Shown piece by piece: positions 10,744-41,270 of a DNA stretch of 56,030 nt. The position numbers and the translations under genes were made by a program. Positions within the stretch are counted from its first letter, which is position 1. Each line of letters opens with the position of its first letter. Below the pieces are notes generated by a model. The model did not search any database and was not told the origin of the DNA. It was given only the letters and a program-made list of their open reading frames with translations. The DNA lies in the NCBI GenBank assembly GCA_964194995.1, contig CAXMPS010000098.1, positions 1 through 56,030 on the forward strand, in the 5' to 3' direction. Source of the DNA: an uncultured Gammaproteobacteria bacterium (GTDB taxonomy: Bacteria > Actinomycetota > Acidimicrobiia > Spongiisociales > ZC4RG35).

Positions 10744-10786
10744 AGGTGAGCGGATTCTGACCGTATCCGGGCTGTACTACCTGAGG
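10744..10786 (+). repeat. 43-nt interspersed intergenic element, copy A
   Basis: AGGTGAGCGGATTCTGACCGTATCCGGGCTGTACTACCTGAGG. It lies between DUF1684 and PhzF, both on the minus strand. Confidence 0.9.
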
Positions 10787-10799
10787 TTTGCGTAAACAT

Positions 10800-11312
10800 T
10801 TAAACCGGCCAGTCCTTCTCCCCCGCTTCGATGGGGACTGTGAGCCAGTTTTCGTGAGGTGGCATGGGACAGGAGTATGAGTCGCTGTATACGCAGTACG
10901 GGTTATACGCCAGATTGAAGTCGAGTGTCACCGAACCATCACCGTTGGCCTCGATGTCGAGGTAACGCCCGGCCCCATAACTGGTTTTTCCCGAAGTAGA
11001 GTCACGAAACGGGATAAAGAACCCGGGCTGGCCTGTGTTGTACATCGCCAACGTCACCGTCTCACCGTCGACTTCAAAGTTGACCCTGGCATCACGTCGA
11101 TAGACCCGCTGTTGACCGTCCGACGTCTGGATCGTGATGGCTTCACCGTCTGCCGGCTCCACGGACACGGTGAACACCAACCCGGGGTCGGGGTCGTAAT
11201 AGGCAAGACCGGAGAACTCCGCTTGGTGGTGGTGATCCAATGGAGCGTGATCACTTGTGGCGAAGAACTCGTCTTTGGCTTTGCGATGCTCGAGCAAACC
11301 GTCGATATCCAT
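10800..11312 (-). CDS. DUF1684 domain-containing protein
   Basis: The C-terminal LAYNPYCVYSDSYSCPMPPHENWLTVPIEAGEK matches the DUF1684 signature as I remember it. Confidence 0.7.
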   Translation of the reverse strand: MDIDGLLEHRKAKDEFFATSDHAPLDHHHQAEFSGLAYYDPDPGLVFTVSVEPADGEAITIQTSDGQQRVYRRDARVNFEVDGETVTLAMYNTGQPGFFIPFRDSTSGKTSYGAGRYLDIEANGDGSVTLDFNLAYNPYCVYSDSYSCPMPPHENWLTVPIEAGEKDWPV

Positions 11313-11449
11313 AATCAGCAGAACCTATCTGAGTTCGAAAGGATTCCGGGTATAGGTCGATAGTCCTGGGCCGACTGCCCCATGGACTTCGTCGCGGTTT
11401 GGAGGGATTCTGAGCAGGCATTTTCTGAACAGCTTTGGGAGGCACCCCA

Positions 11450-11614
11450 ATGAACATTGGTTTCAACACCAGAATCAATCCCGAGACTTGTGTGCACGCC
11501 AAGTCGATCGTGGTGAATACGGTTGGGCTGCAGCGTCTCATCTGCGAGACCTGTGGTCACGTCAGCGTCAAGTTCAACGATGACACCAGCAACGAGTCAG
11601 GTGAACGGCTTTAG
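11450..11614 (+). CDS. Small (54 aa) zinc-ribbon-like hypothetical protein, absent from the ORF track (<60 aa)
   Basis: The ATG is preceded by GGGAGG at about 7 nt. The peptide MNIGFNTRINPETCVHAKSIVVNTVGLQRLICETCGHVSVKFNDDTSNESGERL carries CxxH...CxxC spacing. Confidence 0.45.
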   Translation: MNIGFNTRINPETCVHAKSIVVNTVGLQRLICETCGHVSVKFNDDTSNESGERL

Positions 11615-11862
11615 CCCGCAACGCCGACGAACTTCAGCCTTTGGAAAAACGTCGAGTCGGTGCCGCCTGACGGCTTTTGACCAGACTCCACGTGATTGCG
11701 CTTCACCCACCCACGCACCCACCAAAGAGGGTCGTCTTTGGTCCCGGCTCCGGAGATCGGTTCTCCCGTGCCTGCGAGATCGTCGAACTCCCCTGACTCC
11801 ATCGCCTCTCTGATGATTCGATCGATGTCTGTCTCGAATTCGCCGGGCGGGCCGATAGGCAT
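11611..11862 (-). CDS. DUF1992 (DnaJ C28-like) domain protein
   Basis: IIREAMESGEFDDLAGTGEPI resembles the DUF1992 core. Confidence 0.6.
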   Translation of the reverse strand: MPIGPPGEFETDIDRIIREAMESGEFDDLAGTGEPISGAGTKDDPLWWVRGWVKRNHVESGQKPSGGTDSTFFQRLKFVGVAG

Positions 11863-11892
11863 GGAGGAAATACTACCGACCCACGCCGTACG

Positions 11893-12048
11893 TCAGATCA
11901 GACGGGCGCCGCTGTTCGCCTGACGATCGAGGGTGAACCGATAGCGTCCGAAGGAGAATGATCGGGTGGCGGATACGCTGACAGTGCGTCGATATTCACA
12001 CGCCTGACGACGTCTTTCGGTCTGAATGCTCTTTGCTAAATCGTACAT
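11893..12048 (-). CDS. Hypothetical small basic protein (51 aa)
   Basis: The ATG at 12048 is preceded by AAAGGA at about 7 nt. It is divergent from the CGNR gene. No family recognised. Confidence 0.25.
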   Translation of the reverse strand: MYDLAKSIQTERRRQACEYRRTVSVSATRSFSFGRYRFTLDRQANSGARLI

Positions 12049-38706: not shown

Positions 38707-38730
38707 TACTAAGATAATCCTCACCGAGAA

Positions 38731-39744
38731 ATGAGTAGATACATAATAAGGCGCACCCTGATCGCCATTCCCACACTCATAGCCATCAGCTTTGTGATCT
38801 TCATAATTCTCGACCTGGCGCCCAACGACCCCACTGGCAGCTTGCCGCTTACTGTCCCTGGTGACGTACGGGAGGCGATCAGGGAAGCGTTGGGACTCAA
38901 CGACCCGTTTTTCTTCAGATGGCTGAAGTGGATGCGGCAGATGTTCATCAACGAACCGCTCAACTTCATCGAGTCGGTTTTCAACATCTCGATTGGAGCC
39001 GGCGAGGACCGCGTTCGAATTGTCTCCTGGTCGTCCCGGTCACCGGTAGTCGACACCATCATCCAACGAATCCCGCAAACCCTCTGGGTGCTGGGTACAG
39101 CCTTCATCCTTGGGGTCATAATCGCTGTCCCCGTCGGCGTCATCTCGGCCTATAAGCAATACTCCGCCTTTGACAACATCGGCACGTTCGTGACGATGGT
39201 CGGATACTCGGTCCCTACATTCTTCACCGGACTCCTGGCCATCATCATCTTCAGCGTTTGGCTGGGATGGTTCCCATCCTTCTACGACACCACGCTGGAG
39301 GTGAATAGCTGGGAGACATTCGTTCAGCAGGTCAAGCAGATGATCATGCCGGTTGCCGTGTTGGCCCTGTTCAACGCCGCCGCATTGAGCCGATTCACCA
39401 GGTCGTCGATGTTGGACAACCTCAATGAGGATTATGTGCGCACAGCGCGTTCAAAAGGCATCAGCGAGAACCGTGTCTTGACGCGTCACGTCCTGCGCAA
39501 CAGCCTCATCCCGGTCGTCACGTTGATCGCCCTCCAGATCCCGGGCATATTTGCTGGAGCGATCATCACCGAACAGATCTTTCGGGTCAACGGTCTGGGG
39601 CAGCTGCTGATCATCTCGATCCAAGGGGGCGACGTTCCGATGGTCCAGACCCTCACATTCATCTTTGCGGTGCTTATCGTGTTCTTCAACCTCATCGCCG
39701 ACGTAACATACGGACTCCTCGACCCCCGAATCAGGTACGACTGA
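38731..39744 (+). CDS. ABC transporter permease (OppB/DppB type)
   Basis: Six predicted TM segments and a BPD_transp_1-type EAA region (ARSKGISENRVLTRHVLRNSLIP). Confidence 0.85.
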   Translation: MSRYIIRRTLIAIPTLIAISFVIFIILDLAPNDPTGSLPLTVPGDVREAIREALGLNDPFFFRWLKWMRQMFINEPLNFIESVFNISIGAGEDRVRIVSWSSRSPVVDTIIQRIPQTLWVLGTAFILGVIIAVPVGVISAYKQYSAFDNIGTFVTMVGYSVPTFFTGLLAIIIFSVWLGWFPSFYDTTLEVNSWETFVQQVKQMIMPVAVLALFNAAALSRFTRSSMLDNLNEDYVRTARSKGISENRVLTRHVLRNSLIPVVTLIALQIPGIFAGAIITEQIFRVNGLGQLLIISIQGGDVPMVQTLTFIFAVLIVFFNLIADVTYGLLDPRIRYD

Positions 39745-40685
39745 TGGCGACAGCTCAAAAAACCGTTGAACAGGAACACGGCGAACTCGACGCCGTAGGC
39801 GCACGGCACAGGACTCTTTGGTCAGACGTATGGCGCCAGTTCAGACGTCACAAGGGTGCGGTGGTAGGGCTAGTTCTCCTAATCGTCATACTCCTTGGCA
39901 GTTACCTCGGTCCATTCGTTTACCCGCACGATCCATTTGCAATCGATATCTCGGTGGCAAATCTCGGACCGTCTCTCGAACACCCAATGGGAACTGACAA
40001 TATTGGGCGTGACGTGATGGCCAGGGTTCTGGTGGGGGGTCGAATCTCGCTTTCGGTCGGGATCACAGCGATGCTCATCGGCGTTTCTGTGGGAACTGCA
40101 GTTGGGATTCTCGCCGGGTTCTTCGGCCGACTCGATGGGATCCTCATGCGCGGTACCGACATGTTTTTGGCGCTGCCAATTCTCCCTCTCTTGCTGGTAA
40201 TCATCATGCTCTTCCGCGACTCGTTGAGGGAAATCTTCGGGCCAGAACTAGGAATCTTCTTGCTGGTTGTGTTCATCATCGGTCTAACTAGCTGGATGCA
40301 GACTGCCAGAGTTGTTCGTGGCGATGTCCTCGCTTTAAAGGAACAGGAGTTTGTTCTCGCCGCCAGAAGCGTTGGCACAAGAAAAAGCAAGATCATGATG
40401 CGTCATATCTTCCCCAACGTTTTGAGCCCGGTAATGGTCGCCGCTGCACTCGGCATGGCGATCGCCATCATCACCGAGTCCGCCCTTTCGTTTCTTGGAC
40501 TCGGGTTCCCGTCCGACTTCCCCACCTGGGGCCGGTTGCTCTTCGACGCCAAGGACTTCATCCAACTGGCTCCCATGCGGGTTGTCTGGCCAGGCCTGCT
40601 GATCTCGCTCACAGTCATAAGTGTCAACTTCATCGGTGACGGTCTCCGCGATGCTCTCGATCCCAAGCTGCGGAGCAAGGGCTAG
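39744..40685 (+). CDS. ABC transporter permease (OppC/DppC type)
   Basis: N-terminal OppC-like segment, HPMGTDNIGRDV, and an EAA region (AARSVGTRKSKIMMRHIFPNV). 1-nt overlap with the upstream gene. Confidence 0.85.
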   Translation: MATAQKTVEQEHGELDAVGARHRTLWSDVWRQFRRHKGAVVGLVLLIVILLGSYLGPFVYPHDPFAIDISVANLGPSLEHPMGTDNIGRDVMARVLVGGRISLSVGITAMLIGVSVGTAVGILAGFFGRLDGILMRGTDMFLALPILPLLLVIIMLFRDSLREIFGPELGIFLLVVFIIGLTSWMQTARVVRGDVLALKEQEFVLAARSVGTRKSKIMMRHIFPNVLSPVMVAAALGMAIAIITESALSFLGLGFPSDFPTWGRLLFDAKDFIQLAPMRVVWPGLLISLTVISVNFIGDGLRDALDPKLRSKG

Positions 40686-40697
40686 GCCGCAAGCAAC

Positions 40698-41201
40698 ATG
40701 ACCGATCGCGAATCACTTGACCTTCACTTTGGTCGCTGGCTCTTGTGGGGTCTAGCCGCAATCTTGGGGCTGCTTGTCATTGTCATCTTCTTCGCCAATG
40801 CAGCCAGGGACAGCTCTTCAACATCGTCGGACGGAGCTGAGCAGGTCGAATGGTCGATCCAAACCAGTGAATACACCCCGACACCCGGGGTGGTCACGCT
40901 CAAGGGAGACACCCCCACAGGTCTTCCGACTGAGACATGGCAGAACGACCTCCTGCTCGCACGGACCGTTGGCGGTGAAGGCTTCATTTGGAACATGAAT
41001 GTCAGTCCGGAGGTTCCGGTACCGGTGTACGACATCGATCAGGCGGGATCGTGTGACGAACTGAACACCGAACTGAACAACTGGGCCAACGAGATCGGTC
41101 ATGCGGCAGGTGACGCCCGCCGTGCCGAAGCATCGGCCTTCGCCCAGCACGCTCTAGACACCATGCTCGCCGACGGGTGCGATCCCCCCCAAACCCCCTA
41201 A
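40698..41201 (+). CDS. Hypothetical membrane-anchored protein
   Basis: A single N-terminal TM segment (WLLWGLAAILGLLVIVIFFA), 12 nt after the permease gene. No family recognised. Confidence 0.5.
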   Translation: MTDRESLDLHFGRWLLWGLAAILGLLVIVIFFANAARDSSSTSSDGAEQVEWSIQTSEYTPTPGVVTLKGDTPTGLPTETWQNDLLLARTVGGEGFIWNMNVSPEVPVPVYDIDQAGSCDELNTELNNWANEIGHAAGDARRAEASAFAQHALDTMLADGCDPPQTP

Positions 41202-41227
41202 ATCCGAACCGCCCCTCCGGCGGACAG

Positions 41228-41270
41228 CCTCAGGTAGTACGGACCGGATACGGTCGCAATCCGCTCATCT
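41228..41270 (-). repeat. 43-nt interspersed intergenic element, copy E
   Basis: The minus strand reads AGATGAGCGGATTGCGACCGTATCCGGTCCGTACTACCTGAGG. It lies between convergent gene ends at 41201 and 41276. Confidence 0.9.

Follow-up and report, generated by a model that had tools for sequence, protein, structure and literature searches.

Contig CAXMPS010000098.1, analyzed here over its entire 56,030 bp (hereafter, the window), contains five copies of a short intergenic repeat built around a small hairpin. The copies, denoted A to E, lie beside genes that include an extracytoplasmic function (ECF) sigma operon, an mmsA-like aldehyde dehydrogenase, an opp-type operon, and an ABC-3 permease (Table 1). 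A preliminary description reported the repeat as a 43-mer in both orientations, and a degenerate form of that 43-mer has exactly five matches, at the coordinates and on the strands reported, with no match in any of 100 dinucleotide shuffles. No sixth copy in the window was found with an nhmmer profile built from 26 copies, and a repeat search identified the element as the sole substantial interspersed repeat present. All five copies are intergenic, in the contexts first described. Alignment together with 100-nt flanks gives sharp borders, and no flanking sequence is common to the copies. The 43-mer itself stands, but the true unit is about 2 nt longer at the 5′ end and about 6 nt longer at the 3′ end, where it closes with a TTTGCG-like extension that is present in four of the five window copies and absent from copy E.

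The element is interpreted, with a probability of roughly 0.5, as a family of REP-like (repetitive extragenic palindrome-like), or “tagged hairpin,” short interspersed repeats of a small Acidimicrobiia clade that would be maintained by a trans-acting DNA enzyme specific for sequence plus structure. The features that point to a REP-like repeat, whether selfish or semi-domesticated, are a stand-alone unit, a hairpin read by its shape together with a tag, parking at gene 3′ ends, random orientation, subfamilies, concerted evolution, decay, and nesting. Among the roles initially proposed, the REP-like one is borne out by the genomic behavior of the copies (gene 3′ ends, convergent spacers, and random orientation), while those of a promoter, of a repeat resembling the mycobacterial interspersed repetitive unit (MIRU), and of a larger structured RNA are unsupported.

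A family confined to a few Acidimicrobiia

An exact-pattern scan of 185,579 species genomes returned 21 loci. Twenty of these are in two Acidimicrobiia species represented by metagenome-assembled genomes (MAGs), CAXMOW01 and JBAVIK01, and the remaining one is a chance flank match in an unrelated MAG. Exact matches number at least 17 in 15 stretches of the CAXMOW MAG, at least 5 in the JBAVIK MAG, and 5 in the window. Metagenomes contributed 22 more loci, mostly strain variants with few new lineages, including two contigs 99.7-99.8% identical to the window. With duplicates removed, 38 non-redundant copies remain, none of them outside a small set of related Acidimicrobiia MAGs and metagenome contigs; the viral contigs and plasmids scanned contain none. 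Among the genomes and metagenomes scanned, the family is restricted to a narrow group of uncultured Acidimicrobiia.

The family is previously undescribed in Rfam, the searched literature, and mobile-element collections. A covariance-model check against Rfam, which the preliminary description had left as a possible source of identification, gave no window hits at the gathering score and none at E-values up to 1 over the L013 and L007 copies (carrier sequences are cited by locus number). A string search of the literature for 13-mers of the element found no occurrences, and three surveys of REPs (PMC3733652, PMC2817692, PMC3116915) do not have Actinomycetota among their listed hosts.

A hairpin between two conserved blocks

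In order, the unit of approximately 50-53 nt comprises the 5′ block (A)TGAGCGGATT, then two bases that vary, a stem of 5-7 bp capped by a 4-nt loop, and the 3′ block GTACTACCTGAGGTTTGCG. Within the 3′ block, ~6 nt past the stem, is the tag CTGAGGTT. The consensus reads aaAgaTGAGCGGATT-nn-GaCCg-tATa-cGgnC-n-GTACTACCTGAGGTttgc. Thirty-six of the 38 copies are equal in length, and a constant 17 nt separates the two blocks in 36 of the 38. That the flanks are invariant from locus to locus is in part an effect of ascertainment because the scan patterns demanded the flanks; six copies found only via the profile still keep TACCTGAGGTTT.

The central GACCG/CGGTC hairpin, proposed from the window copies, is backed by covariation. 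For the 5-bp stem, 89% of cells are paired and double changes are seen at four of the five pairs, and the observed value was reached in none of 500 shuffles. Stem registers slid from this position pair at only 8-42%. Extension of the stem with pairs 16-33 and 17-32 holds, the 7-bp version being 81% paired. Between copies the stem is wholly replaced with the flanks unchanged, occurring as GACCG/CGGTC, GCCCG/CGGGC, GCTCA/TGAGC, and TATCA/TGAGA. An A·G mismatch is present in the stem of 13 of 36 copies; it recurs at stem position 2 and is kept even in TATCA/TGAGA.

The hairpin is weak, with an alifold consensus of -2.3 kcal/mol and single-copy fold z-scores of -1.0 to +0.8. Nothing else folds consistently, and z-scores near 0 argue against a structured RNA beyond the small hairpin. 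The outer GCGG/CCGU helix suggested earlier is in competition with the supported stem and, though 88% pairable, has no covariation. TATC and GATA loops occur as first given. Most frequent is a palindromic loop, TATA (in 10 of 29 copies that were assigned to three species, and seen in other lineages too), so TATC and GATA may be either mirror one-base variants of TATA or loop inversions.

An extra hairpin of ~18 nt is found at the identical point, just before CTACTACC, in two independent copies (L009a and L035b). Canonical, variant, and divergent designs share a core of a hairpin, ~6 nt, and CTGAGGT. Two further pairings were considered and rejected: the R′′/R′ pairing of two flanks seen in attC-like sites is absent, and a pairing of the 5′ and 3′ blocks suggested by the sister subfamily (G11C with C36G/C39G) fails because the 3′ changes of L053 and L055 are not accompanied by G11C.

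Another design was observed at L054:1795-1925, in a convergent spacer orthologous to site E (87% ABC-3 identity). Two inverted units lie ~100 nt apart there, of a design in which a GTAAC..GTTAC hairpin is followed by AACCTGAGGTT. A further member may be present at L009:~7760-7815. The L054 design, along with those of L050 and L009:7804, suggests a “hairpin + CTGAGGTT” superfamily wider than the exact patterns scanned.

Copies lie close to gene ends

Genes around the copies were called with a codon log-odds caller trained on the carrier sequences. Convergent spacers hold 13 of 29 copies against 4.5-5.7 expected from all spacers of the same sequences (p = 2e-4 to 2e-3), and divergent spacers hold three. 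The stop of a same-strand gene lies within 18 nt of the element's 5′ end in 13 of 30 copies, and the stop of an opposite-strand gene lies within 7 nt of its 3′ end in 14 of 30. Several open reading frames (ORFs) terminate in the element's own TAG or TGA, and in several cases one copy fills the whole convergent spacer. Co-directional spacers contain five sense and seven antisense copies, and both orientations are found within one replichore. Neither a sigma-70 promoter consensus nor a U-tract terminator consensus was called at any copy.

The window has no tRNA genes. Elsewhere, one copy lies 6 nt from the 3′ end of a tRNA-Ser gene, inside a tRNA-Ser cluster, which points to an association with transcription-unit ends and not with stop codons as such. 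The cluster (L016:6078-6757) consists of four tRNA-Ser genes with differing anticodons, and the element copy is between two of them.

Canonical copies are all singletons, with the closest pairs at least 570 bp apart. The copies have no common flanks, and the cargo between inverted copies is heterogeneous, consisting of a lipoprotein, an AhpC/TSA protein, a DUF559-like protein, or the ECF operon. The repeat is therefore, in keeping with the preliminary description, a stand-alone unit and not the end of a larger mobile element. A REP-associated tyrosine transposase (RAYT) or other transposase between inverted copies was sought in this cargo and rejected.

Pairs less than 2 kb apart were noted at L013:759-1433, L007:33-725, L009:3298-3881, L035:10330-11395, and window 26723-28538. 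In each of the four independent close pairs the copies are inverted and point their 5′ blocks at each other, an arrangement expected by chance about once in 256 and judged post hoc. At L007:675-760, the 3′ half of a copy and 14 nt of flank are tandemly duplicated (GGTATTACCTGAGGTTTGCxCTGGCGAGGTCA, twice).

Table 1. Repeat copies and neighboring features of the window, with positions on the 56,030-bp contig.
Feature	Position	Strand	43-mer match	Parts	Context
Copy A	10742-10792	+	10744-10786	5′ block 10747-10756; stem-loop 10759-10772; 3′ block 10774-10791	Antisense, in 61-nt spacer from DUF1684 stop (10800) to PhzF start (10735), both genes (-)
Copy B	26723-26772	-	26729-26771	stem-loop 26743-26756	17 nt past stop of 207-aa gene ending ECF sigma operon; sense, 28 nt ahead of ATG (26699) of aldehyde dehydrogenase (mmsA-like; MKQIQHWVDG)
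Copy C	28488-28538	+	28489-28531	stem-loop 28504-28517	Divergent spacer between ECF sigma operon (start 28429, -) and 546-aa gene (start 28647, +); sense, 115 nt before 546-aa gene
Copy D	34583-34633	+	34584-34626	stem-loop 34599-34612	Divergent spacer between F420H2-dependent quinone reductase gene (start 34411, -) and opp-type operon (likely GTG 34699); sense, 72 nt before likely OppD start
Copy E	41226-41271	-	41228-41270	stem-loop 41242-41255	Convergent spacer, 5 nt past ABC-3 permease stop (41276-41278)
GC-rich hairpin CCGCCGGAGGGGCGG	41208-41222	-			Directly after copy E, between two convergent stop codons; outside the repeat
ECF sigma operon	26790-28429	-		PT-repeat protein; 201-aa ECF sigma factor; 207-aa protein	Between copies B and C
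ECF operon promoter	~28445-28470	-		GGAAT-N15-CGTC	Autoregulatory-looking
Promoter motif of 546-aa gene	~28585-28612	+		GAAAC-N16-CGAC	
Aldehyde dehydrogenase start region	26699-26730	-		TACCTT 7 nt before ATG	Appears leaderless
48-nt block CACTAGTGGTCCGCCTTATGAAGGATTGCTACGTCTCTCCGGCCCTCG	15943-15990			palindrome CCACTAGTGG	Between DAHP synthase and OsmC-like genes
Region without ORF of at least 100 aa	11313-12142				~830 bp, between DUF1684 gene and ABATE/zf-CGNR regulator gene

The GC-rich hairpin that follows copy E is a likely terminator and is listed for context only; the U-tract terminator scan did not call it.

Concerted evolution, decay, and nesting

Copies are found at orthologous sites in species whose proteins are 70-90% identical. 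In both L013 and L007, a lipoprotein gene (74% amino acid identity) is bracketed by inverted copies, and in L011 and L005 a copy lies upstream of an orthologous gene within five-gene synteny. Window sites B and C have orthologous sites in L045, site A in L048-L051, and site E in L053-L056. The orthologues of site A across relatives are filled, hold a variant, or retain remnants only. That of site B in L045 is an expanded, degenerate copy, and those of site E in L053 and L055/56 are variant copies.

Orthologous pairs from L013 and L007 differ at 0-1 of 28 positions in the flanks and at 5-9 of 17 in the centers, and the coding DNA between the copies is ~72% identical. Five of six orthologues have a paralogue in their own genome that differs at only 1-3 central positions, and an ATATGAG arm is common to the JBAVIK copies and seen in no others. 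The sister lineages have at sites A, C, and E a common derived 3′ block ending in AGTAGCTGAGG (preceded by GT, GC, or GG) together with a CCCGGATACGG-type stem core; window copies A, C, and E are all canonical where the sister lineages carry this derived form. Since the centers, and the flanks of the sister lineages, are closer to paralogues than to orthologues, the family shows concerted evolution.

Decay is evident at site A, of which L051 retains only AAAGATGAG, L050 only the 3′ part, and L052 nothing recognizable. The AAAGATGAG of L051 is more likely a deletion remnant than a target because L050 is without it. At site B of L045 and site A of L050, a three-hairpin module is inserted within the element, in opposite orientations. 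Gene order and neighboring genes are unchanged despite the decay and nesting. Between the window and L045, identity at site C is 78% for the element, ~93% for the adjacent promoter region of the ECF operon, and ~35% for the spacer on the other side.

The module nested in element remnants at these two loci of two species is itself a second repeat of ~75 nt (L045:~5800-5880 and L050:~9930-10000). Its hairpins read GCGCCCCG..CGGGGCG, GGAGTTTCC..GGAAACTCC, and CTGTTCGG..CCGAACAG.

Resemblance to known repeats

REPs have stems of 5-13 bp with co-varying arms and an unpaired GTAG-type tag beside the stem (Nunvar 2010, PMC2817692; Bertels & Rainey 2011, PMC3116915; Di Nocera 2013, PMC3733652). They are extragenic, lie mainly downstream of ORFs in unidirectional or convergent spacers, and may supply stop codons (PMC3733652). 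The element resembles the REP/REPIN-RAYT systems in being a short extragenic stem-loop with an unpaired conserved tag by the stem, and its co-varying stem of 5-7 bp is within the published range. Siting downstream of ORFs, the supply of stop codons, lineage-specific families and subfamilies, and long persistence are further likenesses, and GGTAGTAC next to the stem on the complementary strand may be another. Canonical copies read GGTAGTAC 1-4 nt from the stem, in an internal position with ~12 conserved nt beyond it. In the sister subfamily GGTAGTAC becomes GCTACTAC, so GTAG switches strand. Unlike REPs, the element is long (~50 nt) and has two long invariant blocks conserved above the stem, the tag common to its variants is CTGAGGTT and not GTAG or CGTC, and its copies are single, without head-to-head dimers or arrays of the bacterial interspersed mosaic element (BIME) type. 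The host phylum, Actinomycetota, is also absent from the surveys cited. RAYT-associated REPs number tens to hundreds per genome, and copies flank the RAYT gene itself.

The TRIT motif of Mycobacterium is a sequence-conserved palindrome that forms a highly stable long hairpin around stop codons (Gardner et al. 2011, PMC3152330). TRIT and the element are both actinobacterial, clade-restricted, conserved in sequence, and narrowly sited at stop codons; many TRIT sites are bidirectional, and the existence of a binding factor specific to them has been suggested (PMC3152330). From TRIT as described, the element differs in that its hairpin is a weak one of 5-7 bp and most of its conserved sequence is unpaired and asymmetric. 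By this analogy, TRIT is the nearest actinobacterial analogue of the element.

The TnpA transposases of the HUH/Y1 type recognize the ends of IS200/IS605-family insertion sequences and of palindrome-associated transposable elements (PATEs) by the shape of a small imperfect hairpin together with nearby short sequences. The element is similar in having a hairpin with flanking sequences at a fixed distance from its foot and in lacking terminal inverted repeats and evident target duplication. It differs in having a single hairpin in place of separate left and right ends and no definable target of 4-5 nt. In addition, unlike IS200/IS605 it has no strand bias in one replichore and no TnpA or TnpB gene nearby.

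MIRUs are arranged in tandem, all face one way with respect to their operon, and overlap both the stop codon of one neighbor and the start codon of the other. The element shares with them an actinobacterial host, a length in the range of 40-100 bp, and a location in spacers inside operons as well as between them. However, it forms no tandem arrays (the sole exception being the partial duplication of a 3′ half at L007:675), follows no orientation rule, and lacks such an overlap, so the MIRU-like label does not apply. A miniature inverted-repeat transposable element was also rejected, as the two ends of the element bear no sequence relationship to each other and the 38 copies show no duplication at their flanks.

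Mechanism and competing explanations

In the mechanism proposed for the REP-like family, a trans-acting enzyme would make the copies and keep them alike. It would recognize the shape of the hairpin and the sequence of the flanking blocks, probably with single-stranded DNA as its substrate, in analogy with the HUH/Y1 transposases (RAYT and IS200/IS605 TnpA) that handle REPs and insertion sequence ends likewise. Copies persist for long periods at orthologous sites and are homogenized within each genome, and in some lineages they decay or acquire the second hairpin repeat. Any effect of a copy on neighboring genes would be at most incidental, for example that of a weak hairpin in a 3′ untranslated region (UTR).

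Several observations weigh against a REP-like origin. No transposase or partner protein was identified with a crude HUH/Y1 (Y..NP) regular expression over 406 kb, which is a weak test that included no complete carrier genome. No clean case of filled-versus-empty polymorphism or of a target-site signature was found. Every strain-level comparison has the copy, and the spacers of L005 and L011, compared as a filled and an empty site, are too diverged for alignment. RAYT-driven REPs typically form head-to-head dimers (REPINs, BIMEs), but the copies here are single. Conservation of the outer blocks above the stem is unusual for REPs and also fits a bipartite protein-binding site. The GTAG motif is internal, on the complementary strand, and not kept in the sister subfamily. 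Lastly, both orientations occur in one replichore, whereas IS608-type elements are strand-biased.

The copies might alternatively function as RNA, serving in 3′ UTRs and intercistronic regions as a lineage-specific, protein-bound terminator, stabilizer, or processing signal of the TRIT kind. This is unlikely because the copies are used independently of orientation and the fold is weak. Their location against gene 3′ ends would suit such a role, and a stop codon, a sense element, and a GC-rich terminator-like hairpin follow one another in four cases (window copy E, L013b, L007a, and L010). On the sense strand, G-U-compatible pairs outnumber A-C pairs by ~21 to 5 (10 to 5 without column 16), and L009a and L035b accommodate an additional hairpin at one and the same position. 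For hairpins conserved in sequence at the ends of actinobacterial genes, TRIT is an earlier example (PMC3152330). However, sense and antisense copies are mixed and either end of the element may face the stop codon. Given that the conserved flanks are asymmetric, the two orientations yield different RNAs. The very weak hairpin, its frequent A·G mismatch, and the lack of a U-tract count against an RNA as well, as does the decay in sister lineages that leaves neighboring genes unchanged.

Because conservation is higher in the outer blocks than in the stem, the most serious rival is a bipartite site on double-stranded DNA, located between transcription units and bound by a protein of the chromosome, for example a nucleoid-associated, roadblock, insulator, or topoisomerase-type factor; its probability is similarly low. 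The 17-nt spacing of the blocks with a small dyad between them, use in either orientation, the preference for convergent spacers, and the retention of copies at orthologous sites across species are all consistent with protein binding. Three features argue against a duplex site of fixed geometry. Compensatory replacement of both stem arms is evidence of pairing and not of a fixed half-site sequence, copies with 17-95 nt inserted between the blocks retain an intact 3′ block, and sites are lost or degraded in sister lineages. The density is also uneven, at 5 per 56 kb here against ~17 exact matches in the whole CAXMOW MAG, and coordinated flank changes across loci would require co-evolution of the protein.

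Less probable again, and doubtful, is that the element is the substrate of an unrecognized, vertically inherited DNA-processing system of Actinomycetota that homogenizes copies at fixed sites at transcription-unit ends. Its enzyme could be a non-RAYT protein or a RAYT-like one with bipartite recognition of the guide-like 5′ block, the hairpin, and the CTGAGGTT tag. If so, the host might use the copies as boundary elements that work in either orientation, and the coordinated flank switch from GTACTACC to GTAGTAGC at several sister-lineage loci would represent co-evolution of enzyme and site.

It is very unlikely that the element is a portable ECF sigma-type promoter (GGATT-N16-CGTAC), for which the ECF sigma factor with its gene between copies B and C would be a possible partner. 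The bipartite shape with a spacer of 16-17 nt, the sense orientation of three window copies ahead of genes, and the position of the ECF sigma operon count in its favor. GGATT-N16-xGTAC is present in the element, but the AAC of a GGAAC-like -35 motif reads ATT, and the C of CGTAC is found in only 20 of 36 copies. Thirteen of 29 copies are in convergent spacers, most copies point into the 3′ end of an opposite-strand gene, and no sigma-70 consensus accompanies them. The neighboring genes have conserved promoters of their own outside the element. Copy C lies between two of these, the ECF-type motifs of the ECF operon and the 546-aa gene, which are 85-93% conserved in L045 (93% against 78% for the element). 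Similarly, the mmsA-like gene has its own conserved TACCTT-N7-ATG promoter. Sigma-54 spacing (GG-N10-GC) was a misfit by inspection.

A small self-contained RNA (a ribozyme, a kink-turn or C/D-like RNA, or one like the selenocysteine insertion sequence, SECIS) or a micro-peptide coding sequence is largely refuted: GAUGAG and CUGA resemble box C and box D, a 12-codon ATG...TGA frame spans the canonical unit, and a UGA lies 10 nt before the hairpin, but G4 and A5 of the “C box” vary, no terminal or closing stem is conserved, a TGA interrupts this frame in copies A and C, no Rfam hit appears even at an E-value up to 1, and the copies are intergenic in both orientations, which also disposes of the SECIS-like reading. 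A hammerhead core was rejected for want of GAAA, and the resemblance of CCUGAGGUUUGCGGUU to the 3′ strand of 16S h45 is probably coincidental.

Other features of the window

The aldehyde dehydrogenase gene downstream of copy B appears leaderless, with the TACCTT ahead of its ATG conserved in L045. The 48-nt intergenic block CACTAGTGGTCCGCCTTATGAAGGATTGCTACGTCTCTCCGGCCCTCG is ~88% identical to a block at L006:329-376, a CAXMOW locus. It matches no Rfam family and most likely comprises an operator together with a promoter, unrelated to the repeat. The ~830-bp region without long ORFs corresponds in relatives to small called genes of 45-83 aa, one with a DJC28_CD domain.

Significance

REP repeats and their RAYT partners have been studied almost wholly in Proteobacteria, and the present family would add a compact case from uncultured Acidimicrobiia. 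It may be used for finding the responsible enzyme and for asking how such repeats persist. For annotation, the element should be masked or labeled as a repeat in comparative and regulatory-motif analyses of these MAGs. The conserved intergenic 50-mers ahead of mmsA, the opp genes, and the ECF operon are, on this evidence, not promoters or riboswitch-like leaders of those genes.

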